A stretch of 64,000 bases of DNA from Gemmatimonadota bacterium (GTDB lineage: Bacteria > Gemmatimonadota > Gemmatimonadetes > Palauibacterales > KS3-K002), in contig JBDHJS010000015.1 of assembly GCA_039586795.1 (NCBI GenBank), positions 78,798 through 142,797 of the forward strand. The letters are read 5' to 3'. Positions 45,750-60,159 of this stretch are shown here, one piece after another (within the stretch, counting starts at the first letter, position 1; every line of letters starts with the position of its first letter). Below the pieces are notes generated by a model. That model was not told where the DNA came from, did not search any database, and was given only the letters and a program-made list of their open reading frames with translations. Made by a program: the position numbers and the translations under genes.

Positions 45750-45806
45750 GCTTTGACCGGACCTGGACCCGCTGAAAATCCCGCCAACAAAGGAATCGAA
45801 GCACGG

Positions 45807-46232
45807 ATGGTTTCGGTAAGATGTAGGCGAGGCTACACGATGGTGGACATAGCCGTCGTGCTCTTCTTGATCGGCGCCGCGATGTCGGTGAGCGGACCGC
45901 TCAGCCGACGTGTGGTAGCCAGCTACCAGTTGACCTCTGCGGTGCAGACGCTGGTATCGGATTTAGCGCAGACGAAGATCCGGGCCATCCAGTCGAACGC
46001 CGTGTCCACGGTGAGGCGCGAATCGGATCGAGACTACCGGGCGGCAAACCACCCGCGGCGTCTCCCCGGCATGGTACGGTTCGAGAGTTCGAGTACCGAT
46101 TCCGTCGCTTACAACGGTCTGGGAGCTGTGACGGATGGCGCGGCGCACGTCTTCGTGTTGGAGAACGTGTTCGGTGAGGCGCGAGAGGTGAGGGTGTACG
46201 CTGCGGGCGGCCATGAGGTGAGGAAGCTGTGA
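45807..46232 (+). CDS. FimT/GspH-like minor pilin
   Basis: Class III signal RRG|YTMVDIAVVLFLIG; LVSDLAQTKIRAI and VAYNGLG motifs. Confidence 0.75.
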   Translation: MVSVRCRRGYTMVDIAVVLFLIGAAMSVSGPLSRRVVASYQLTSAVQTLVSDLAQTKIRAIQSNAVSTVRRESDRDYRAANHPRRLPGMVRFESSSTDSVAYNGLGAVTDGAAHVFVLENVFGEAREVRVYAAGGHEVRKL

Positions 46233-46636
46233 GGAACGCAGCCGGCTTCACTTTGGTCGAGCTGATGGTGGCGCTCGTCATCTTCGCGTTTGGTGTGTTG
46301 GCGGGCGTTGCGTTGCTAGGGGCGGGACACAAGTGGGAGGGGCAAGCGGAGCTGGCGACGCAGATGACGGTTGCGGGTGAGATGAAGATCGAGGAGTTGA
46401 AAGCGATTGCCGGCACCAACCTGCCGGACACGGTTGCCCTGGTCGTCGGTGGTGCTCTGGGATCGAACGTTACGGGATACTCGGACACGACGGATTTGGA
46501 CGGTCGGACGTTCACGCGGCGTTGGCGAGTACAGGCGGGCCCGGCGGGGACGAGGCAGGTGACGGTGAGGGTTTTGCCCTTAGACCCGCCCGCGGCAGGG
46601 CAGGCCGAACTCTGGACGAACGTGATTCATGAATGA
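46229..46636 (+). CDS. PilV-like minor pilin
   Basis: AAG|FTLVELMVALVIFAFG; KIEELK; GTGA overlap with upstream gene. Confidence 0.85.
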   Translation: MRNAAGFTLVELMVALVIFAFGVLAGVALLGAGHKWEGQAELATQMTVAGEMKIEELKAIAGTNLPDTVALVVGGALGSNVTGYSDTTDLDGRTFTRRWRVQAGPAGTRQVTVRVLPLDPPAAGQAELWTNVIHE

Positions 46637-47237
46637 GATGGCGATGAGAGCGTTGACGAAGGGCGGCAAAGCCGGATTCACGACGATCGGGATGATCGTC
46701 GCCCTGCTGTTGTTGGGTCTGATGCTCTCTCCGCTGCTGGGGACGATTCTGTCAGCGCAGAACGGATTCGTGGCAAACCGTGAGCGTGCTCGCGCGGCGG
46801 GCAACGTTCGGTACGCGCACCTCGCGCTGACCCGGTTCATGAGGCTTGCCGGCAGCAGCCCGGTCGGCCTCCCTCTCCCCGGAATAGATCCGGACCCTGA
46901 CGGCAACGGATACTTCGACGATGTCCGCCTGCGCGCTGACTACAATCCTCCGGACGGTGACATCAACGACACGGGTGAGGATCTAGTCTTCTTCGTGCAG
47001 GCGGACACGATGTACGTACGTACAGGGGCAGGCGGCACGCCGGAGCCGTACTTGATTGGCGTCGATTCGTTAGCGTTCGAGTACTACGATCGGGATGGCG
47101 TTCTGATAACGGATCCATCTCTTGTGGCGACGCACGCAATATCGGCGCGCTTAACGATCCGCGCGCGGAGCGAACGGAGCTTCACCCCCACGAAGCGTCT
47201 GTTGAGTGGTGAGGTCAGACTGCGAAACGGGAAGTAG
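46629..47237 (+). CDS. PilW-like minor pilin
   Basis: KAG|FTTIGMIVALLLLG; LTRFMRLAG; LAFEYYD; C-terminal VRLRN. Confidence 0.75.
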   Translation: MNEMAMRALTKGGKAGFTTIGMIVALLLLGLMLSPLLGTILSAQNGFVANRERARAAGNVRYAHLALTRFMRLAGSSPVGLPLPGIDPDPDGNGYFDDVRLRADYNPPDGDINDTGEDLVFFVQADTMYVRTGAGGTPEPYLIGVDSLAFEYYDRDGVLITDPSLVATHAISARLTIRARSERSFTPTKRLLSGEVRLRNGK

Positions 47238-47241
47238 CAAG

Positions 47242-48552
47242 ATGGCTAGAACAGTTCGAGGAAACGAATCGGGAATCGCACTGCTTGCGGTGCTTCTGGC
47301 TATGGGCCTGCTCACCGTCGTGGGCGCGGCGGTCACGGCGGTTGGGATAGTGGAGTACCGGACGTCCGCGAACCATCGGTCGGCGACGCGGGCGCTGCTG
47401 TTAGCGGATGGCGCGGCCACTCATACGCTCGCTTTGCTGCGTGGCCCGCTGGCGCAGTACAGCTACACCGATGTTCTGCTTGGCGCGGATGGGGTTCCCG
47501 ATACGGACGATGACGGTCTGTTGGTGGGGTTCATGGGTCTGAACGGGGCGGATGCGCTTCCGGATACGGGGATTCAGCTGGAGCAAGGTCGCTATTCGGT
47601 ATCGATCGTGAACGACGACTCGGATCCCAGCGGCGATCCTCACAGCGACACCAACAACAGATTCGTCGCGCGCTGTCGTGGCGAGACACCGGACGGCGGC
47701 ATGGCAGAAGTGCGGATCATGCTGGCGGCGCCGAGCTTCCCGGCGGTCGCGACGAACGGAGATCTTTACTTACCCGGCACACCGAACATCGTAGGGCCGT
47801 GCGGCGGAGTGCACGCCAACCGGTTGATCGAAGTCAGCGGACATCCCGTGATATCCGGCGACGTAACGGCCGTGGAAGACGTTGTGATCAGCGGCACGAT
47901 CTACGATCCGGATGGCAATGTGGTCGAGCCGAAGTACGGGCCTCCAATGGAGATTCCGGAGTACGATCCGCTGGACTACTGTGGCCCTGCAGACTTCATA
48001 CTTGCCGACGGCAAGATGCTCGTGGTCGGTCCGCCGGAAGAGGAGCACAACCTGACAGGCAAGAAGGTATTTGGTTGGCAGTACGACAACTCGACGAAGA
48101 CTTACAACCTGACGGCCAAGGACGCGATCGAGGGCACGGTCTGCGCCCACGGCAATGTGAAGGTCATCGGCGATCTTGGCACCATCGGCGACCCGTTCGG
48201 AATCTCAATCCTTGCCACCGGATCGGTGCAGATGACAGGGACTCCCGCCATCGAGTCCACCCACCCGGATGGGATACTGATCATGGCAGCGGGCGATGTG
48301 CAGGCGGGTGGTAACGCAGCGGGTACGACGCCGTTCTATGAAGGTATGGTCTACTCTGGCAGCCAATGCCAGGTGAACGGTAACGCGCTGATCCAAGGTC
48401 ACCTGCTCTGTTACGATGCACCGGACGGCTCTGGCATGGTCGACCTGTTCGATGACAACAAGATCAACGGTACGCCCACCATCACCTACGACTGTTCAGG
48501 CGAACAGCGCCGCACGCTGGTCGCCTCGTGGTGGGAGTCTCGCACGCTGTAA
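47242..48552 (+). CDS. PilX-like protein with large C-terminal domain, copy 1
   Basis: NESG|IALLAVLLAMGLL, ALLLADGA (PilX N-terminus), followed by a Gly-rich beta domain. Confidence 0.75.
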   Translation: MARTVRGNESGIALLAVLLAMGLLTVVGAAVTAVGIVEYRTSANHRSATRALLLADGAATHTLALLRGPLAQYSYTDVLLGADGVPDTDDDGLLVGFMGLNGADALPDTGIQLEQGRYSVSIVNDDSDPSGDPHSDTNNRFVARCRGETPDGGMAEVRIMLAAPSFPAVATNGDLYLPGTPNIVGPCGGVHANRLIEVSGHPVISGDVTAVEDVVISGTIYDPDGNVVEPKYGPPMEIPEYDPLDYCGPADFILADGKMLVVGPPEEEHNLTGKKVFGWQYDNSTKTYNLTAKDAIEGTVCAHGNVKVIGDLGTIGDPFGISILATGSVQMTGTPAIESTHPDGILIMAAGDVQAGGNAAGTTPFYEGMVYSGSQCQVNGNALIQGHLLCYDAPDGSGMVDLFDDNKINGTPTITYDCSGEQRRTLVASWWESRTL

Positions 48553-48576
48553 GTCGAAGGAGGAGTTATACCCGCC

Positions 48577-49896
48577 ATGTCTATCTTCCAGCCACGTCGC
48601 ATCCCGCGCGACGACTCAGGCATGGCTCTACTGGCCGTCCTCCTGGCGATGGCGCTGCTCACTGTGATCGGCGCTGCGATAACGGCTATCGGGATCGTCG
48701 AATACAAAGCATCGAACAACCATCGCTCGGCCACGCGGGCACTGTTGCTGGCGGACGCTGGCGCAACACACGCACTGGCTTTGATGCGCGGTCCGCTCAG
48801 TGAAGTGAGCTATAGCCAGGTCTTGTTGGGCGATGACGGCCTGCCGGCTACGGGTGACGAAGGCGTCCTCGCAGGTTTCGGCCTCACAGTTCTGGATGCT
48901 CTACCCGACAGTGGAGTGCTGCTGGGTGATGGGCGCTACTTCGTGCAGCTGGTGAACGATGCTGCCGATCCTAGCGGCGATCCGCATGCGGACACGAACG
49001 AAAGACTGATGGCTGTGTGCCGCGGCGAACTTCCGGATGGAGGTCGGGCCGAGGTGAGGATGATCTTGGCGGCGCCGAGCTTCCCGGCGATCGTTGCCAA
49101 CGGAGACCTTCTGCTGCCTGGGAACCCCGATGTACTGGGTCCGTGTGCTGGCGTGCACGCCAATGGAACACTGACAGCCAACGGATCGCCGGTGGTCGAT
49201 GGTTTCGTCACGGCTACGGGCGGGCTGAATGTGAGCGGGACGATCACGGATGCTGCCGGGAACGTGGTCACTCCCGAGTACGGTCCGCCCGTAGAGATCC
49301 CGGATCACGACCCGCTCGACTACTGCGGCGACGCCGACTACGTGTTGAGAGACGGCGACTTCATCACGATAGGACCACCGCCCGATACAGCTGAGATCAA
49401 AGGGCCGGGCGTTCTGGGTTGGAAGTACAAGGCGAGCACGGAGACGTATTCGCTGAACGGGAACGGCGCCGTTGACGGTACTTACTGTGTCCACGGCAAT
49501 GCGGAGATCAGCGGCAATGCGGGCAGCGACGGCGACCCGCTTCAGATCACGCTACTGGCCACCGGTTCTGTGAAGGTGACGGGCACGCCGAAGCTAACAG
49601 CTGATCACCCGGATGGCATCTTGATAATTGCTGAAGGCGATGTGGAAATTGGGGGTAACGCGTCTGGTGTTACGCCGTCGTATTCCGGTCTTGTCTACGC
49701 CGGCGCCCAGTGTCAGATGCACGGCACGCCTGATGTTGACGGTCATGTCCTGTGCTACGACGCGCCGGATCCTGCTGGCGCTGCAGACCTGACCGATGAA
49801 AACAAGTTCAACGGAAACCCCACCGTCACCTACGACTGCTCGGGTGAGCGGCGGCGCACATTGGTGGCCTCGTGGTGGGAGGCTCGGGCCCAGTAA
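48577..49896 (+). CDS. PilX-like protein with large C-terminal domain, copy 2
   Basis: DSG|MALLAVLLAMALL; collinear with copy 1 (NHRSATRALLLAD, LAAPSFPA, HPDGILI, RRTLVASWWE); AAGGAGG RBS. Confidence 0.75.
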   Translation: MSIFQPRRIPRDDSGMALLAVLLAMALLTVIGAAITAIGIVEYKASNNHRSATRALLLADAGATHALALMRGPLSEVSYSQVLLGDDGLPATGDEGVLAGFGLTVLDALPDSGVLLGDGRYFVQLVNDAADPSGDPHADTNERLMAVCRGELPDGGRAEVRMILAAPSFPAIVANGDLLLPGNPDVLGPCAGVHANGTLTANGSPVVDGFVTATGGLNVSGTITDAAGNVVTPEYGPPVEIPDHDPLDYCGDADYVLRDGDFITIGPPPDTAEIKGPGVLGWKYKASTETYSLNGNGAVDGTYCVHGNAEISGNAGSDGDPLQITLLATGSVKVTGTPKLTADHPDGILIIAEGDVEIGGNASGVTPSYSGLVYAGAQCQMHGTPDVDGHVLCYDAPDPAGAADLTDENKFNGNPTVTYDCSGERRRTLVASWWEARAQ

Positions 49897-49992: not shown

Positions 49993-51450
49993 CTACTTCC
50001 GAGCGAAATCCTTCCAGTTGAATTCCGGCGTCGAGAAGTCATAGTCGGGCTCCGTCCGCGCGCGGATCATCATGGCATCCGCTCCCGAGACCAGCTGCTC
50101 GACGGCCTTGCCGTAGTCCGGCACGCCGATCTGCGGAACGGGCTCAGCTCGGGGCCCGATGGAGGCGATCCCCATACTCAGCGTTAGCGGCGGCAGGCTG
50201 TCCAAGGAAGACCGTCCGCTTTGCCGACCCAGAGAGCTGTAAATCCGCTGTACCACGGTATGCGCGCCCTCGGCCGTTGAGTCCATAAGAACGATCAGAA
50301 ACTCGTCGCCGCCGAACCGACCTACGACATCCGAGTCGCGCACGTTCCGCCTGAGCAGATTGGCCACGTAGCGCAGCGCGCGATCGCCCGCGATATGTCC
50401 GTAGCGATCGTTTACATTCTTGAATTCGTCGATATCGGCCATCACGACCGAGATCGGGAAGGACTTCCGCCAGGCCAGCTTCAGAGATTCGTTCAGCCGC
50501 TCCAAGGTGAACGCTTTGCGGTAGGCTCTCGTCGTGGCGTCGATTGTGGCCAGCTCGTAGAGCGCCGCGCTTCGAATCGCGGCCGCCGCCTGGCTGGCAT
50601 ACACCCGGAGGACGTCCGCGTCGCGTCGACCTTGAACGGGGTGTTTCAAGTAGGCGAGACCCAGGACATGCTCGGCCAACGCCAACGGCAGTACAGCGTC
50701 GTCATCGCCCTGCTGGTGAGTGCCATCTTGAATGGCCTGGCGCAGCAGCTTGGAGGGTACCGACGCGAGATCATCGACGTTCGAGCCGATAGGGTATCGG
50801 TTGTGGCTGGTGGCTCCCACGACGTAGTCATCCGTATCGTGGTCTTCTCTGGCGAGACCGCGGGCTAGAGGCTTGCCGATGGGGTCGCTCATGCGTGCCG
50901 CCACGAACGCGCCGTCGCCGCCGATCAATCCGTCGACTTGATCGAGAATCGCCTTCAACACGTCATCTAGAGACTGGATTCGATGCAGTTGAGGGATGGC
51001 GTCCAGGACCTGCCGCAATTCGGCACGATTGATCCGGATAATCTCTTCCTGGCTAATCGCTCCGAATGCGGCATTCACCCACAACCGCAGACCGTCACTG
51101 CCGTGCTGTTTGTCGTGGTAGCCAAAAATCTCATGTGCCTTGAAAAAACGGCGGAAACGATCGTCAGGAGGTCCCGATGCGAGCAGCACCACCGGCGCGC
51201 CCGGCGCCCGAGCTCTCAGGTCGCCCAGTGGGTCGGCGCCGTCCATCTCGAGCAGTGCCACCTCAACGAGCAGCAGGTCGGGTGCTTGGTCGGCGAGCAG
51301 GTTGGCAGCGGCGATCAAGTCCTGGGCCCCCCAGGCCCGATGACCGGCTTCGGCAATCAGCTGGCAGCTTTGGGCCACGAAGCCGGGGTCGCTGTCGATG
51401 AGCAGGACGCTGCTGTTCCCGTTGGGGGGGCTTGGGCGTATATCTGTCAT
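49993..51450 (-). CDS. Diguanylate cyclase: pseudo-receiver + GAF-like + GGDEF
   Basis: REC fold with LLLVE at the phospho-Asp position; DIDEFKNVNDRYGHIAGD, RDSD I-site, intact RFGGDEF. Confidence 0.88.
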   Translation of the reverse strand: MTDIRPSPPNGNSSVLLIDSDPGFVAQSCQLIAEAGHRAWGAQDLIAAANLLADQAPDLLLVEVALLEMDGADPLGDLRARAPGAPVVLLASGPPDDRFRRFFKAHEIFGYHDKQHGSDGLRLWVNAAFGAISQEEIIRINRAELRQVLDAIPQLHRIQSLDDVLKAILDQVDGLIGGDGAFVAARMSDPIGKPLARGLAREDHDTDDYVVGATSHNRYPIGSNVDDLASVPSKLLRQAIQDGTHQQGDDDAVLPLALAEHVLGLAYLKHPVQGRRDADVLRVYASQAAAAIRSAALYELATIDATTRAYRKAFTLERLNESLKLAWRKSFPISVVMADIDEFKNVNDRYGHIAGDRALRYVANLLRRNVRDSDVVGRFGGDEFLIVLMDSTAEGAHTVVQRIYSSLGRQSGRSSLDSLPPLTLSMGIASIGPRAEPVPQIGVPDYGKAVEQLVSGADAMMIRARTEPDYDFSTPEFNWKDFARK

Positions 51451-54233: not shown

Positions 54234-54614
54234 CTAGACGATCAGCGTGACGGCGAAGATCAGCACGAGGCCGTGCCCCAGCTGATCCAACCCCAGAAAG
54301 TACCAGAACACGCTTTGGCCCGGATCGGCCAGCGCTGGAAACCGGCGGGCGAGCGCCGGGCGGAGGAAGTCGAGGGCGAAATGTGTTGTGAAGATGAAAG
54401 CGGCGACGATCGCGGTCGTCTTCCAGCCTGGAGCTGCGATCAGAAGGGTAGCGAGAACGACGAGCAGCGCATGGACGCCCGCGTGGGCAGCGATCAGTAT
54501 CGGCTCGCCCCTCACCTTCGCTTCCTGCATTCTACGCGTGGCGAGCGGCGTGAAATCACCAAGGTAATGCGCGACTAGGAAGGCGCAGAGCAGAGCGATC
54601 GTCTGTCCCGTCAT
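54234..54614 (-). CDS. DUF3307 family membrane protein
   Basis: About four TM helices with AHYLGDF, HAGVH, THFALD, DQLGH; ATGA overlap with the cyclase gene. Confidence 0.85.
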   Translation of the reverse strand: MTGQTIALLCAFLVAHYLGDFTPLATRRMQEAKVRGEPILIAAHAGVHALLVVLATLLIAAPGWKTTAIVAAFIFTTHFALDFLRPALARRFPALADPGQSVFWYFLGLDQLGHGLVLIFAVTLIV

Positions 54615-57600
54615 TCGGTCTCTTGCTCCGATCCATCTCCAAGCTCGAGGATCTTACGGTTGAGGGGGATCTCGTCCAGATAGCGGCGACGAAGGCCGAC
54701 GTCCTGGATCAGCTCGGCTTTCTTCTTGACCGTCTGTTGAGCGTGAGCGAGTACGTCCCGCATTTCATCCTGGCGACCCAGCGTGGCCAGGGTGCGCAGG
54801 CGCGTGTAGAGAACGGCTTCCTCCGGCCCCTGGATGTTGCCATGCCGGTAGAGCCGTCGAGTGGCCTCGGCGGAGGCCGTGTCGGCGGCCGTGAGATCGT
54901 TTGCATCGAGGGCAAGCTCGGCCTCGCGGGTCAGAGCTAGAATCTCCACGTGGACCAGGCCACTGCGTTGAGCGAGGGTCAGCGCACGTCTGGCGCTCTC
55001 GCGTGCATCCGCTCCCGTCTGAGTGCGCGCCAACAACGACCAGGCGCGTGCCTCGAACCCTGGCTGCCGAAGGCGGCGTGTGTCGGCGCATACCGTCTCC
55101 AGCAGCTGGGTTGCCTCGAGCTTGTCGTCGCGGGCCAGTAGCACCATGGCGAGGGCCAGGCGGGCGCCCGATTCGGCCTGAATCGATCCACAGTCCTCAG
55201 CTAGTCGGAGCGCGGCACGGGCAACCTCCTCAGCTTCCTCGAACTGCCCCAGTCCGCATAGCGCCAGCGCCTGATGCCCGATGACTCGAGCTTCGGCGGG
55301 TCTGTATCCCAGTTCGATGAACTGGTTTCGCGCTGCCTCGAAGTAGTCGAGCGCCGTGGTGAAGTCGCCGACGTCGACCTGAACGAGACCCAGCCGGTCG
55401 AAGATCTCTGCCTGCCCGAAGCGGTCGCCGGCGGCGCGTTCGAGGGGCAAAGATGCACGGTAGAACTTGAGCGCTTCGGGGCAGCTACCGGAGAGGTGAG
55501 CGATTCGCCCAAGGATCCGAAGCACATCCGCTTGCATCGAGATATCGTCGAGCGATTTGAACCCTTCTAATGCGAGTTCCCCACGTTGACGAGCATCTTG
55601 CAGATCGCCGGAGTCGAGCAAGTGACGCGAACGTCGGTAATCTGCTTCGGCAGCGATGCGGGTGTCGCTGAGTTCTCCGGCTAGCTTCTCCAGCTCGGCG
55701 ATCGATTCCTGGCGTCGGACTACGTCACCGGACTCGGCGGCGATCTCTTCTGCTATCAGTAAAAGACTGGCTTTCAGCACGGCTCCGTCTGCGAGCTTCA
55801 GCGCTCGCTCCACGAGAGTCAGGGCATCGGGTATAGCGCCGCGTGCTAGAGCGGCCTTGGCCGCGTTCTCGAGGAAGGGGACCGCCCTCGCCGGCTCCTT
55901 CGAGCGTTCGTAGTGAAAGGCCACCCAATCATCGTAGTCGGCGACTTTACCCGCCGAGCGCAGCTCGAGCCACTCAGCGACGGCGGTGTGTAGCTCTGAA
56001 CGGAGACTTAGCAGCATCCCTTCGTAGGCGACCTGGTGCAGCAGCAGTTGCTCGAATAGAAACTCGCGGTCCCCGGCGATGGCGGAGTGCGGTTGCTGAC
56101 GTACAAAGGAACCATCAATCAAAGAGTCCAGCTCGCGGTCAACAGCGCGGCGCGCTAAGGCGTCTGTGACAACGCCCGCCCAGAAGCGTCGACCGACTAC
56201 CGCCGCGTACTGCAGGACTGACTTGGTACCGGCATCGAGTGCATCCATCCGTGCGGTCAATACGCTTTCGATCGTGTCCGGAACTTCGGTGAGGGGGCTC
56301 TCATGCTCAACGCGCCAGACATTGTCGGTTTGGACCAATAGCTGGCGCTCTAGTAGTGACTTGAGCGTTTCTTCGACGAAGAGAGGATTGCCATCGGCGC
56401 GCTCGACGACACGGTCGATGAATGCTTCCGGGAGTTCATGGGCGCCCAGTAAGATGTCGAGAAACGAACGCGACTCTTCGTCGCTGAAGAACGGGATGTC
56501 GATCTCGTCTCGCACCGCTTCGAAGAGATTCGCCAGCCCGTCTTCGCCAGGCAAAGGGTCGCGGCTGATCAGGACGGCCAGGACGGGACCTCGGAATCCG
56601 GCCTCCGGCAGCTGCCGAAGCGCCTCGAGCGTCGTGCTGTCTGCCCAATGCAGGTCTTCCAAGACGAGTAGGCGCGGCTCCGTGAAGGTGCTTTCTACGC
56701 AGCGCTTCAGAGCCCGATTGATCCGCGACTGCCGTTCAGCGGCATTATAGAGCTGCAACTGAGTTGCTTCGGCGACCGGCCTGCCAAAGGCGACCTCGAG
56801 GCTCTCGATCTCCTCGGGCGTCCATTCGCCGGGTGAAGCGTGGACGATGTTCGCGACGGCGTTTTGCGGCGAGAGGTCGGCCGGCAAACGGTAGAGGTCG
56901 AGAACCATCTCGGTGATCGGCTCCCATGGCCTGACCGTCGTATAGGGGTAGCATCGCCCTTGCGCGATCTGGGACTCGCCCAATCCTTCCGCCTGTATGA
57001 GCTCTCGGACGAGTCGTGATTTGCCGATTCCAGCGGGTCCGTTGACCAGGCAGAATTGGAACTCTCCGGTGACGGCTCGCTGCCAGTGCTGGCGTAGCGC
57101 CGCCAGCTCTTCCTTGCGTCCCACGAGAGGGGTGACCTTCCCGAGGAACCCGCGGGCGCTGCCGAGCTCTGTCCGCACCGCGGCAACGTGGCGAGCCCGA
57201 ACGGCCTGGCTCCGCCCTTTCACGTTCAGTACCGATTCGTCGTCGAACTCGAATATGTGGCGTGTCTGTTCGTAGGTCTTAGAGTCGACGAGTATGCGCC
57301 CCGGCTCACAAAGGCCCTCAAGTCGCGACGCCACGTTTACCGTGTCGCCGACGGCGGTGTAGTTCTGGGCTCCACCACCGGCGAACAGTCCCATGACGAC
57401 GGGGCCAGTGGCGATCCCGATGCGTAGTTCAGGTTGATATCCATCTTCGCCTTGCGTGGCGGCTCGAGCGGATGTCCAGGCGCGCATCGTCCGCTGCATG
57501 TCGAGTGCGGCGCGGACTGCACGCTCCGCTTCGTTCTCGTAGGCGATGGGCGCTCCAAACAAAGCCATCACGCAGTCGCCGATGAACTTGTCGACGTACC

Positions 57601-57940
57601 CTCCCCAGCGACTGATGCCCTCACAGAGGTGATCGAGGCAGTCGGCGACGAGATCGTGAGCTTCTTCGGGGTCTATCTGTTCGATGAGCTGCGTGTAACC
57701 GGAGAGGTCACCGAAGAGCACGGTGACGACTCGACGGTCGGCCTGGGCAGGAGAAGACAGCGGAGCCCCGCATGAATCACAAAAATTGGCATGCGTGGCG
57801 TTGGGCGTGTTGCAGGCCGGGCATGTGACCGTCGGACGAGAACCAACAGGTGTCCCACAGGCAGAGCAGAACCGGGCCTCTTCTGACAGGAGGGCGCTAC
57901 ACGCCCCACATTCCGCATGTTGCCGATCACCGGGAACCAT
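54611..57940 (-). CDS. Double zinc ribbon - class III adenylate cyclase - STAND NTPase - TPR protein
   Basis: Four CxxC pairs; LFGDLSGYT, DKFIGD, YTAVGDTVNVASRLE; GPAGIGKS, LEDLHWAD, GNPLFVEE; TPR C-terminus. Confidence 0.92.
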   Translation of the reverse strand: MVPGDRQHAECGACSALLSEEARFCSACGTPVGSRPTVTCPACNTPNATHANFCDSCGAPLSSPAQADRRVVTVLFGDLSGYTQLIEQIDPEEAHDLVADCLDHLCEGISRWGGYVDKFIGDCVMALFGAPIAYENEAERAVRAALDMQRTMRAWTSARAATQGEDGYQPELRIGIATGPVVMGLFAGGGAQNYTAVGDTVNVASRLEGLCEPGRILVDSKTYEQTRHIFEFDDESVLNVKGRSQAVRARHVAAVRTELGSARGFLGKVTPLVGRKEELAALRQHWQRAVTGEFQFCLVNGPAGIGKSRLVRELIQAEGLGESQIAQGRCYPYTTVRPWEPITEMVLDLYRLPADLSPQNAVANIVHASPGEWTPEEIESLEVAFGRPVAEATQLQLYNAAERQSRINRALKRCVESTFTEPRLLVLEDLHWADSTTLEALRQLPEAGFRGPVLAVLISRDPLPGEDGLANLFEAVRDEIDIPFFSDEESRSFLDILLGAHELPEAFIDRVVERADGNPLFVEETLKSLLERQLLVQTDNVWRVEHESPLTEVPDTIESVLTARMDALDAGTKSVLQYAAVVGRRFWAGVVTDALARRAVDRELDSLIDGSFVRQQPHSAIAGDREFLFEQLLLHQVAYEGMLLSLRSELHTAVAEWLELRSAGKVADYDDWVAFHYERSKEPARAVPFLENAAKAALARGAIPDALTLVERALKLADGAVLKASLLLIAEEIAAESGDVVRRQESIAELEKLAGELSDTRIAAEADYRRSRHLLDSGDLQDARQRGELALEGFKSLDDISMQADVLRILGRIAHLSGSCPEALKFYRASLPLERAAGDRFGQAEIFDRLGLVQVDVGDFTTALDYFEAARNQFIELGYRPAEARVIGHQALALCGLGQFEEAEEVARAALRLAEDCGSIQAESGARLALAMVLLARDDKLEATQLLETVCADTRRLRQPGFEARAWSLLARTQTGADARESARRALTLAQRSGLVHVEILALTREAELALDANDLTAADTASAEATRRLYRHGNIQGPEEAVLYTRLRTLATLGRQDEMRDVLAHAQQTVKKKAELIQDVGLRRRYLDEIPLNRKILELGDGSEQETE

Positions 57941-57955
57941 CGTGCTATCGTCTTG

Positions 57956-58333
57956 TCAGTCGGATTCGGCGGATCGCAAGCGTCCGACTTCGGCGTTCAA
58001 CTCACGGATGCGAGCTGACATCTTTTGCGTGATGCGAAAGGCGAGGGAAGCATCTTCGGCGATTCTCCGGAGGAAGGTCTTCTTATCTATGGTCAACAAT
58101 CTTGCTTCGCCCAGGGCTCTGACCGTGGCCGACCGTTTCTCGCGGTCGAAAATGGCCATCTCGCCGAAAAAATCACCGGCGTTGAGAACGGCTAGCTGAA
58201 CTTCTTTGGCGCCCTCGCGGCGAACCACTTCTACGCTGCCTTCCTGGATCACGTACATGCAATCGCCGGTCTCGCCTTCGCGAACGATCTGCTCGCCGTC
58301 TTCGTAAAGCTTTCCAATCGTAATCTTGGCCAT
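57956..58333 (-). CDS. Stand-alone cyclic-nucleotide-binding domain protein
   Basis: REGETGDCMYVIQEG, phosphate-binding cassette GDFFGEMAIFDREKRSATVRA; no HTH. Confidence 0.92.
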   Translation of the reverse strand: MAKITIGKLYEDGEQIVREGETGDCMYVIQEGSVEVVRREGAKEVQLAVLNAGDFFGEMAIFDREKRSATVRALGEARLLTIDKKTFLRRIAEDASLAFRITQKMSARIRELNAEVGRLRSAESD

Positions 58334-58343
58334 GGTCTTCCGT

Positions 58344-59738
58344 CTAATCTCTTTTGCCTAACGCGGCAGCGGCAAAGTTCCAAAACAAGTTCACCAGGAA
58401 GGCGGGCCGCAAGGTGCGAAATAGGATGTCCTTGTACGGTGCGCTGCCCGTAAACAGGTCCCACATCACCATGCTCATGCGTGGGCGGCTACTGTTACCC
58501 TCTTGCTCAGTACGGACCATACGTGTTACCCCGAGGCGGGCTGGCTTCAGCTTCTGAAGGAAGCGATTCATCGTGAAGACGAACTCACCGACGCGGTTGT
58601 CCCTGTCGAGTGAACGGCACGTCGGCCAATAGCCGTGCTGGAAGTCGTCCGCAGCAATACCCTCGTGAATTGCAGTGCGGGCTGCGGCCTTGGCGGTGCG
58701 GTACGCTGCTCCGATCCCGTCTTTATAGAGACGAGTCACGCCGCAGTCGCCGATGAAGACCATGCGATCGGCGAACGGTCGCGCGGCACCACGTACATTG
58801 ATCTTGGGCGAGCAGTGGCAGTACCCCTCGGGCCTCTTCCAGTCCGGCGGCAGACATTTCTTAACCTGAGGAGCATCCAGGAACGCATCGACCATCGTGC
58901 CGTCGATATCCTCGCCAAGAAGGCACAAAGTGACGTAATCACCCTTTGGGATGAGGGCGCTGAACTCGAGTCGTGGCAGATTCAGGAGGAAAACGTGCAT
59001 CGAGCTGCCAAGGTATTTTACGACCCTGTCTCGGCCCAGGTGCAGTTCGCTGATATATGTCTTTGAGGTTTGTGGAGGCTCGTACTGCAGATCCAGTTTG
59101 TCCAGCGTCTTCAAGATCCCCGTGTTCACACCGACCGCTACGGCCAGTAGGTCGTAGATCTGAACATCTTCATCGCGTGTGCTTACTCGCACACCGACAG
59201 GCTGTAATGCGACGTCGCTTATGCGTTTCCGGACTACGTTCGCACCTTTCTCAATTGCCAGCGACTGCAGGAATCCGTCGAAGCTGCTCCAGCATGAACC
59301 CTCAGCGTCTCTGGGGCCGGCCCCACGGTGTACTGAGGCAATTCGCTTTTCTCCTAGCGGGGTGTCAATGTGGACAGTCGCGCCATCCATCGTGTGCATC
59401 ACGTAGGAATCGATCCCGCGTTGGACAACGTTGTCGGGCAGGGTGATTCCCTCCGTTGCCAGATGCTGAACCAGTGATTCTGATACGATCCCACCGCAAT
59501 TGTTACATCCCGCCGGACCGATCTTCGTGTAGTCGCGCGGCTCGTAGATGTCGACTTGAAGCTCCAGGTCTACCATCCGGGCCATATCGAGAAGGAAATA
59601 AGCGAAGAACGAGCCGGCAGGACCGCCACCCATGACGGCTACTCGTGAGCCATCTTCGAGGCACAGGCCGCTGTCGCGCATGACCGAGGGTGTGGAGAGT
59701 TCGGCCGCGATCGATCGCTTGCTGGAAGCTCTTGCCAT
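58344..59738 (-). CDS. FAD-dependent oxidoreductase (geranylgeranyl reductase/FixC-like fold), unknown substrate
   Basis: VAVMGGGPAG, CNNCGGIVSE, FIGDCG...KDGIGAAY; GGAGGAG RBS. Confidence 0.8.
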   Translation of the reverse strand: MARASSKRSIAAELSTPSVMRDSGLCLEDGSRVAVMGGGPAGSFFAYFLLDMARMVDLELQVDIYEPRDYTKIGPAGCNNCGGIVSESLVQHLATEGITLPDNVVQRGIDSYVMHTMDGATVHIDTPLGEKRIASVHRGAGPRDAEGSCWSSFDGFLQSLAIEKGANVVRKRISDVALQPVGVRVSTRDEDVQIYDLLAVAVGVNTGILKTLDKLDLQYEPPQTSKTYISELHLGRDRVVKYLGSSMHVFLLNLPRLEFSALIPKGDYVTLCLLGEDIDGTMVDAFLDAPQVKKCLPPDWKRPEGYCHCSPKINVRGAARPFADRMVFIGDCGVTRLYKDGIGAAYRTAKAAARTAIHEGIAADDFQHGYWPTCRSLDRDNRVGEFVFTMNRFLQKLKPARLGVTRMVRTEQEGNSSRPRMSMVMWDLFTGSAPYKDILFRTLRPAFLVNLFWNFAAAALGKRD

Positions 59739-60159
59739 ACAAAACTCCTCCCTGTCGCCGAGAACGCGAAAAGCTATTCCGTCTTAGCGACTCGGGCAGC
59801 CCGCTCACCTTTTGGTGGGAGCGAAGCCCAAGACAATCCGGCCGCACTGGAGCGTCATGGGACGGGCGGGTGGCAAAGCGACGCACGGCAGCCAACAGGC
59901 GGGGCACTGCCCCCCGCTGCAAACAGCGGACCGCTGGGCAATGGCTCGCCGAATACGGTCTACTTATGGCTCGGGGCTCCGCACATAATGTCGAATACCG
60001 CCGAAAGACACAATTGTCCCGTGAGAACAACACCTAGCCCGGCGGGCAGGCAAGGACGAGGTGGACTGAGGCGCCGCTCACGCCTAGTTTGGCTGGGCCA
60101 GGTTCGGCTGGTACTGATTCAGAGCCGTCCGAATTCCCTACAATCTCGGAGTGCTTTTC

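Follow-up and report, generated by a model that had tools for sequence, protein, structure and literature searches.

What does a bacterium gain from an operon that sets a nucleotide cyclase beside a free-standing cyclic nucleotide reader, a flavoenzyme and a small membrane protein? Such an operon lies on the minus strand at positions 54,234 to 59,738 of a 64,000-nucleotide (nt) stretch of a Gemmatimonadota genome (assembly GCA_039586795.1, contig JBDHJS010000015.1), which we call the window. Our preferred reading, to which we give a probability of roughly 0.6, is that the operon joins a cyclase that likely makes cyclic AMP (cAMP), together with a DUF3307 protein, to a flavoenzyme/sensor pair, in which the sensor is a predicted detached regulatory subunit that would switch a likely reductase when cAMP rises. 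The four genes fall into two modules, module A comprising the flavoenzyme and the sensor and module B the cyclase-STAND-TPR protein and DUF3307, which are joined at one locus only in some Gemmatimonadota. The features of the locus are listed below, with the basis of each assignment in brackets.

59745-59752, minus strand: Shine-Dalgarno-like GGGAGGAG ahead of the first gene (sequence)
58344-59738, minus strand: uncharacterised flavin adenine dinucleotide (FAD) flavoenzyme of 464 aa with a fold like that of geranylgeranyl reductase (GGR) and FixC, catalytic part of module A (open reading frame and structure match)
59496-59507, minus strand: C78-N-N-C81 motif of the flavoenzyme (homologue alignment)
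58812-58820, minus strand: C307-H-C309 motif of the flavoenzyme (homologue alignment)
57956-58333, minus strand: stand-alone cyclic nucleotide-binding protein of 125 aa, the sensor, regulatory part of module A (Pfam)
58127-58165, minus strand: phosphate-binding cassette G57-E58...R67-S-A69 of the sensor (alignment)
54611-57940, minus strand: double zinc ribbon, class III cyclase, STAND ATPase and TPR protein of 1109 aa, the writer, module B (Pfam)
57206-57730, minus strand: class III cyclase domain, K118/T195 adenine-type, with six catalytic residues (Pfam and alignment)
56579-57130, minus strand: STAND-type ATPase domain (AAA_16), Walker A and B intact (Pfam)
55094-55618, minus strand: MalT-like TPR region, predicted sensor part of the cyclase protein (Pfam)
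54234-54614, minus strand: short-form DUF3307 membrane protein of 126 aa, module B (Pfam; coupled to the cyclase by a 4-nt overlap)

The original prediction, made from the letters alone, had described a self-contained cyclic nucleotide operon, and the layout it reported is real: four co-oriented genes are separated by 10 nt and 15 nt and then, between the cyclase and DUF3307 genes, by a 4-nt ATGA overlap, and every motif it quoted is present. An assembly artefact or a chance arrangement of four genes was rejected, as the same order is found in two relatives. Pfam assigned double zinc ribbon, Guanylate_cyc, AAA_16 and TPR families to the 1109-aa protein, cNMP_binding alone to the 125-aa protein and DUF3307 to the 126-aa protein; no Pfam family matched the 464-aa flavoprotein.

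The strongest association in the operon is that between the flavoenzyme and the sensor. A search for the flavoenzyme family recovered 5740 proteins among 7996 scored candidates, and in 14 of the 120 homologues listed a PF00027 domain is fused to the C-terminal end of the enzyme, some carrying two. Gene neighborhoods were taken from the best 80 of 521 stretches in a species-level genome collection, the 521 being the whole family; among these 80, the closest named loci are from Gemmatimonadota at 59-68% identity, and identity across phyla is 50-68%. The sensor is the next gene to the flavoenzyme in 64 loci and fused to it in 13, giving 77/80 across many phyla. Two of the remaining three loci stop at a contig edge and one (L032) has no sensor; there, the sensor's place as next gene is taken by a 250-aa protein that neither Pfam nor NCBIfam matches (L032:7304-8059). 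This family-less protein recurs near the flavoenzyme at L049, L052, L077, L125 and L227, and a copy lies elsewhere in the host genome (G000:C30:60184-61008).

The association was also examined in the reciprocal direction, using 80 metagenome loci retrieved by sensor alignment alone. For sensors scoring at least 150 bits (n = 31), the enzyme was directly upstream in 25, nearby in 2 and lacking in 2, while 2 loci were cut off, so that 27 of the 29 assessable top-scoring sensors sit beside a flavoenzyme. At lower scores the enzyme was found in 6/14 loci at 100-150 bits and in 0/35 below 100 bits. A reversed order, sensor then enzyme, also occurs (L249, L257). On a FastTree phylogeny of 105 domains, a quick method with a long-branch warning for the outgroup, sensor-paired enzymes form a single branch of 86/105 rows with support of 96. 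A separate phylum sample contained the flavoenzyme family in 24/301 genomes, and in 20 regions from that phylum the sensor accompanied 6/6 enzymes of the paired clade and 0/14 of the outgroup. Because of this adjacency, the reciprocal result and the restriction to one clade, we take the sensor as a dedicated partner of one flavoenzyme subfamily. The predicted tie between a free reader and the flavoenzyme is supported by the fusions, the adjacency, the reciprocal test and the enrichment of cyclases described below. Searches of open-licence PMC and bioRxiv papers turned up no description of the pair or the operon, though the pair could be listed in supplements to comparative studies.

The sensor is a beta-barrel cyclic nucleotide-binding (CNB) domain with B and C helices (PF00027, 88 bits). 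As originally read, its phosphate-binding cassette, GEMAIFDREKRSAT, is intact and it has no output domain, Pfam finding cNMP_binding alone. Across 80 aligned CNB domains the cassette residues G57, E58 and R67 are kept in 79, 79 and 77. No further domain and no transmembrane segment was found in the sensor or its fused enzyme, and the sensor has no DNA-binding or other output part. A CRP/FNR regulator was rejected as an identity for this 125-aa protein, which has no helix-turn-helix (HTH) and aligns to no more than residues 27-139 of the CRP model, itself 214 positions long. On the strength of its sequence, the sensor is predicted to bind a cyclic mononucleotide. The closest single-domain PDB match of its profile is the Bd1971 cAMP sensor (E 3e-24), and both proteins are CRP-like, lack a DNA-binding part and are tied to an enzyme. 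According to PMC6717892, Bd1971, a cNMP-EAL protein of Bdellovibrio, is an enzyme switched on by cAMP, and a CNB domain normally regulates the enzyme fused to it. The present pair differs from Bd1971 in three respects: its putative output enzyme is a flavoprotein with the GGR/FixC fold, enzyme and sensor are mostly encoded by separate genes (64/77), and a cyclase is encoded locally. The same differences hold against the mycobacterial acetyltransferase Pat, which we take to be a cAMP-regulated CNB enzyme (NCBIfam NF058543 domain match).

The cyclase domain matches PF00211 at 84.5 bits against a cut-off of 21.9, and its closest solved relative is Pseudomonas aeruginosa CyaB (3r5g, E 6e-29). All six class III residues noted at the outset are intact: the two metal-binding aspartates D78 and D122, the transition-state residues N202 and R206 and the adenine-type pair K118/T195. 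With this full catalytic set, the earlier assignment to the adenylyl type holds, and the protein likely makes cAMP from ATP. Catalytic residues and the K/T pair are common to CyaB and other class III adenylyl cyclases; the operon protein, however, is soluble, carries a double zinc ribbon, a STAND ATPase and TPRs, and is translationally coupled to DUF3307. Its ATPase has intact Walker A (GPAGIGKS) and Walker B (LVLEDLHW) motifs, and the protein shows the STAND layout of an N-terminal effector, a P-loop NTPase with both Walker motifs and C-terminal repeats.

Class III cyclases recur beside module A. They were found at 35/80 genome loci, within 600 nt in 29 of them, and in the independent metagenome set at 14/31 high-scoring against 3/35 low-scoring sensor loci. 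In the 50 longer loci with genomes scanned for PF00211, 25 have a class III cyclase where genome-wide density predicts ~1.6, far above chance, although this is a contrast to which no P value is attached. Their architectures include double zinc ribbon-STAND, FHA, FHA-GAF, CHASE2, tandem cyclase-STAND and cyclase-NB-ARC types; because these architectures differ and sit on separate branches of the tree, repeated recruitment of cyclases is indicated. Most of the flanking cyclases, on several branches, are adenine-type (K/R plus T). In nine FHA-cyclases directly 3' of the sensor (L027, L045, L047, L049, L051, L059, L060, L064, L070) the base-selecting positions hold E and S and the catalytic Asn is replaced by V or I, so that lineages may differ in their messenger. 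No more than two class III cyclases are encoded in the host genome, and a cyclic nucleotide reader stands immediately ahead of both.

Since the writer is encoded next door, cAMP is the most likely ligand of the sensor. In register with CRP, sensor residues L112 and N113 sit at CRP positions 127 and 128. At the position of CRP-S128, Ser selects adenine and, in PycTIR, Asn selects uracil, as set out in sections of PMC11224242. The N113 position is variable within the sensor family (N/D/S/G/T), and no pattern was seen between this residue and the type of the neighboring cyclase. N113 and the nine FHA-cyclases could be taken to mean that the sensor reads cyclic GMP or cyclic UMP, or is a fixed structural subunit, and that the adjoining cyclase is a passenger serving CRP; the two modules are unlinked in six relatives and a paralogous cyclase lies behind a CRP-like gene, in keeping with this view. 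Against this, adenine-type cyclases have been recruited beside the pair on several branches, and the near-invariance of the phosphate cassette makes a subunit that binds no ligand unlikely. We regard this alternative as very unlikely and retain cAMP as the probable messenger.

The same Asn raises the question of phage defence, which the original prediction had approached by analogy with Pycsar. In Pycsar (PycC with PycTIR or PycTM), as described in parts of PMC11224242, a class III cyclase stands beside a CNB receptor with Asn at the C-helix specificity position, as in this operon, and PycC selects pyrimidines through Y/D/R or F/R/Q residues. On a Pycsar-like model, detection of a phage protein would fall to the STAND-TPR part, and killing of the cell to the flavoenzyme or DUF3307. 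The STAND-TPR architecture, the pairing of a cyclase with a receptor, PADLOC matches to PycC cyclase and PycTIR CNB domains, N113 itself and a patchy distribution among relatives (16/61) are all consistent with such a role. The PADLOC matches, however, are generic and limited to shared cyclase, CNB and TPR domains, with none for the enzyme or DUF3307. The cyclase is adenine-type (K118/T195), and no homologue of the enzyme was found in 72,556 plasmids, 50,697 phages or viral contigs. The GC content is like that of the rest of the window, and neither the flanks nor the recurrent neighbors include defence genes. At 50-68%, the identity between phyla is not typical of defence genes. Membership in Pycsar was rejected, the cyclase being adenine-type and the receptor lacking a TIR or transmembrane effector; unlike Pycsar, the operon has its cyclase under STAND-TPR control, an effector-less receptor and no mobile or defence context. 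The analogy is not supported by these comparisons: a defence role for the operon has little support, and we consider it highly improbable.

If the sensor is a regulatory subunit, the nature of the enzyme becomes central. The model of the flavoenzyme (predicted local distance difference test (pLDDT) 88, predicted template modelling score (pTM) 0.89) was matched by VIA-align most closely to archaeal GGR (3oz2; Z 30.2, root-mean-square deviation (rmsd) 3.3, 361 aligned), tied with FixC (7koe; Z 29.2, rmsd 3.2, 338 aligned). Sulfolobus acidocaldarius GGR (3atq) follows at Z 27.6, then monooxygenases and halogenases at 26.7 and below; group A flavin monooxygenases and flavin halogenases span Z 20-27 and are also among the top Foldseek matches. 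The fold is common to archaeal GGR (Ta0516, 3oz2, and 3atq) and FixC/EtfC (7koe), at an identity of only 14-16%. Passages of PMC10821996 give the GGR motif set as GxGxxG, the CGG cysteine, RxxFD, LxGD and PxxYxWxFP, and state that GGR and FixC loci often include ferredoxin or electron-transfer flavoprotein genes. The flavoenzyme has counterparts of GxGxxG, the CGG cysteine, R..FD and xGD (as IGD), and the PxxYxWxFP substrate-cavity motif is missing, with PRLEFSALIP, placed by motif, at the equivalent strand before PKG. A true geranylgeranyl reductase was rejected on this absence and on the NCBIfam score against TIGR02032, the GGR family (41.9 bits, far under the cut-off of 158.8). FixC/EtfC was rejected as well, no EtfAB or FixX being found among the recurrent neighbors of the 80 loci or in the window. 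In contrast to GGR and FixC, the flavoenzyme has three extra co-varying cysteines and R336/K339 after the GD motif, and is paired with a cyclic nucleotide sensor rather than with EtfAB/FixX neighbors.

The CNNC (78-81) and CHC (307-309) motifs pointed out earlier are present and invariant among the 120 homologues listed. Judged from motif position, C81 belongs to the CGG motif and occupies the position of the GGR cysteine that adjoins the flavin. We tallied the cysteines in 159 flavoenzyme-family domains from a distant-homologue search. All four are kept in 117/135 first or only domains, with C81 alone lost in 12, and in the second domains of tandem forms C78, C307 and C309 are jointly lost and C81 is retained in 24/24. 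Since three of the cysteines vanish together and C81 separately, we infer a three-cysteine site and a distinct GGR-type cysteine; C78, C307 and C309 likely form a metal site, predicted to lie next to the FAD. Near the active site the family-specific residues K339, D380, W426 and Y435 are invariant and R336 nearly so. Tandem flavoenzymes of 860-930 aa (P0139-P0176, L203, L204) have a second domain without three of the four cysteines, likely a pseudo-enzyme partner, and this cysteine-poor domain is also encoded by a gene of its own (L207, L208, L210). Other distant homologues (P0203, P0207, P0212, P0231, P0248) carry an N-terminally fused DUF7530.

Genes that could supply electrons recur around module A. 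A DsrL-like gene lies directly 3' of the pair in 5/5 retrieved f2-family loci, at L201 and in 7/37 of the best metagenome loci, as counted with a profile seeded from four of these same loci. PRK12771-type genes of this kind follow the pair away from dsrAB at L121-L125, L201, L230, L231, L234, L236, L244, L247, L249 and L257, and at L249 and L257 the sensor comes first, then the enzyme, then the DsrL-like gene. PMC7596348 describes DsrL as an NAD(P)H:acceptor oxidoreductase that ends in a ferredoxin. Its layout of an N-terminal Fe-S domain, an FAD/NAD(P) core and a C-terminal ferredoxin is matched by this recurring third gene of module A; unlike dsrL, the third gene is not beside dsrAB, and it offers a lead for an electron donor while forming no part of the operon studied here. 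The DsrL-like neighbors are 43-47% identical to the copy in the host's own dsr operon. In that cluster (G000:C73:65013-79582) dsrA exceeds the curated cut-off and is joined by a dsrB-like and the DsrL-like gene; because of this cluster the host likely has dissimilatory sulfur metabolism. Among distant flavoenzyme homologues, 5 of 43 scanned are fused to Pyr_redox_2, three of them with NDH2_C; NDH-2-like C-terminal fusions are seen in P0187, P0220, P0238, P0239 and P0246. Weaker recurring neighbors are a DUF2867 epimerase-like gene (5/80 genome loci, 7/37 best metagenome loci) and SRPBCC genes (10/80). Together, the DsrL-like and NDH-2-like partners and the DUF2867 and SRPBCC neighbors favor a reductase with an external electron supply, perhaps acting on a lipid-like substrate. 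The host's DUF2867 epimerase-like gene lies at G000:C106:1499-12169, a lipid-modification-like cluster by eye, whose genes we take to be a fasciclin, a MerR regulator, a DUF1295 protein and a fatty-acid methyltransferase.

The flavoprotein might instead be an input, a redox or oxygen sensor whose state is combined with cAMP occupancy and relayed to neighboring signalling proteins. Recurrent neighbors of the flavoenzyme are mostly signalling genes, alongside redox genes; outgroup enzymes that have no sensor also neighbor signalling genes (GAF-GGDEF, HD, sigma-54 activators, kinases); no metabolic pathway recurs among the neighbors of the 80 loci; and the predicted metal site beside the FAD would suit such a sensor. 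A CNB domain, however, normally regulates the enzyme fused to it, as in Bd1971 (PMC6717892), the invariant family-specific residues near the active site are what catalysis would demand, and electron-donor neighbors and fusions recur. An input role seems fairly unlikely to us, and we keep to an enzyme as the output. The surroundings of some sensor-less outgroup enzymes (L205, L212, L213, L214) are conserved as a string of genes that includes DivIC, one for a GGDEF protein and one that by eye resembles ArgS.

The fourth gene follows the cyclase rather than the enzyme. DUF3307 (PF11750, 48.2 bits against a cut-off of 23) contains the four His/Asp clusters that had been described as membrane-embedded, HYLGD, HAGVH, HFALD and DQLGH. 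Three of its hydrophobic segments exceed the threshold, and the model is a bundle of four long helices (pLDDT 96). H16, D20, H78, D82, D110 and Q111 are invariant. A fold search of the PDB gave a best Z of 8.2 to a TetR-like helical bundle, which is within background, and a search of viral models returned only DUF3307-like phage proteins. A P1-nuclease/phospholipase C-like fold, which we had considered for DUF3307, did not figure in the match list, an absence that excludes nothing. This DUF3307 sequence was not found in the mobile-element searches, and clusters of look-alikes of the short form are largely phage-encoded (phrog_2470). In the open-licence PMC and bioRxiv literature DUF3307 is scarcely mentioned, and then in the context of phage genomes.

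DUF3307 occurs in 21/61 related genomes as 22 copies, 18 of which directly follow this type of cyclase. A second cyclase-STAND-TPR and DUF3307 pair in the host itself (G000:C48:5176-10046; 51% and 55% identity) is preceded by a CRP-like gene and by a GAF/efflux-adaptor/peptidase-like cluster. In another phylum DUF3307 is present in 21/101 genomes, and at 20 loci there the gene ahead of it is SatD by Pfam in 11, shares its motifs by eye in 8 and is ThiF in 1; in most of these loci (L146-L165) the DUF3307 directly after the SatD-like gene is of a long form. SatD presumably has a cyclase fold. The SatD/SatE pair thus resembles the operon in placing DUF3307 directly behind a gene with cyclase-like motifs (19/20), whereas in the operon DUF3307 is of the short form (126 aa) and is partnered by a complete STAND cyclase that has no HTH. 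From this distribution DUF3307 looks like a cyclase accessory.

The flavoenzyme is found in 16/61 related genomes, and in 6 of these 16 all four genes share one locus, three in tandem as here and three convergent around a DsrL-like gene. Among the others, two have three of the four genes and six carry the two modules without linkage; in one, from a genome 84% complete, no DUF3307 was found, and in one there is no more than a fragment at a masked gap. This recurrence in tandem and convergent arrangements could mean that the four genes are one integrated circuit with DUF3307 as a membrane-embedded eraser (a metal-dependent cyclic nucleotide hydrolase) or second effector. DUF3307 is present in 14/15 other genomes with the flavoenzyme, has six invariant His/Asp/Gln residues and also follows SatD genes in another phylum (11/20 by Pfam). 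It is near only 3/80 flavoenzyme loci, however, all in Gemmatimonadota and none outside the phylum; it tracks the cyclase and not the enzyme (18/22 copies); metallo-beta-lactamase hydrolases occur instead at 7/80 module A loci, one with a class II phosphodiesterase match; and short DUF3307 forms are found in phage genomes. We consider a single circuit quite unlikely and prefer two modules. On this point the original prediction needs revision: a self-contained four-gene system is not supported, DUF3307 belonging to a cyclase module that also exists without the flavoenzyme, and of the co-conservation it proposed to look for, that of the flavoprotein-reader pair, its fusions and its cyclases stood while that of DUF3307 did not hold outside Gemmatimonadota.

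Taken together, the data suggest the following course of events. A ligand at the TPR/STAND part would let the cyclase domains dimerise, and the cyclase, to judge from its residues, would then make cAMP. The sensor would bind the cyclic mononucleotide, taken to be cAMP from the neighboring writer, and, as the fusions and co-inheritance suggest, may dock on the C-terminal end of the flavoenzyme and alter its activity up or down. The enzyme could draw NAD(P)H electrons through a DsrL-like or NDH-2-like partner and the three-cysteine metal site beside the FAD, and might reduce a small, probably hydrophobic molecule. Weakest is the placing of DUF3307, which may act as a cyclase accessory, likely a metal-binding membrane protein, and not as an output of the flavoenzyme.

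Several observations weigh against this reading. Six relatives have both modules in unlinked positions, and no cyclase was found in 45/80 loci within the stretches covered. The excess of cyclases over the ~1.6 expected overstates its significance because relatives are non-independent and the cyclase profile was built from these loci. Two top-scoring sensors, L217 and L240, have no flavoenzyme. The sensor's ligand is uncertain because its Asn favors uracil in PycTIR, the position varies and cyclase type does not track it. The term reductase is itself unsettled because monooxygenases and halogenases (Z 26-27) trail GGR and FixC by just a few Z units and kynurenine monooxygenase takes the top Foldseek rank; PDB sequence searches with the flavoenzyme or its profile gave nothing significant, leaving no solved relative by sequence. 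The DsrL-like neighbor is missing from the window and from all 80 best genome loci.

Other features of these loci are recorded here. At L217:5001-6898 the enzyme-less sensor, the best-scoring in the metagenome set (69% identity), lies ahead of a CNB-Ser/Thr kinase and next to GAF-phosphatase and metallo-beta-lactamase genes. The operon is flanked by a DEAD-box helicase and a sortilin-like gene, and its composition is flat relative to the window. Scans returned no promoter-like site where 1.2 would be expected, 5 terminator-like sites where chance gives 4.5 and, for a CRP-box consensus, 16 matches (19.8 expected), none of them upstream of the operon. Two public sequencing runs cover shares of 0.13 and 0.05 of the region in short scattered pieces at a depth of 2-4, uninformative on transcription or habitat, and no gene junction is spanned among the 16 pieces listed. 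Elsewhere in the window are a type IV pilin-like cluster (45753-49896) with two tandem paralogous PilX-like genes named by eye (47206-48552 and 48577-49896) and a receiver-DUF3369/GAF-GGDEF protein with a GGDEF motif (49993-51450).

In bacteria, the established routes of cAMP action are chiefly CRP, along with a small number of channels and CNB-fused enzymes. A broader proposal is that the pair belongs to a widespread, undescribed branch of cAMP signalling that acts on redox chemistry, in which a detachable sensor like that of protein kinase A would gate an Fe-S flavoenzyme, with DsrL-like NAD(P)H supply, lineage-specific cyclases as inputs and DUF3307 as a general membrane-embedded metal enzyme removing the cyclase product; we hold this only tentatively and think it somewhat doubtful. 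The preferred reading of the operon, if true, would make a conserved redox enzyme family with a dedicated sensor a new direct output of cAMP in many, mostly uncultured phyla. The natural single-chain fusions make switching of the enzyme by the sensor directly testable, and DUF3307 is now tied to nucleotide cyclases in two unrelated settings.

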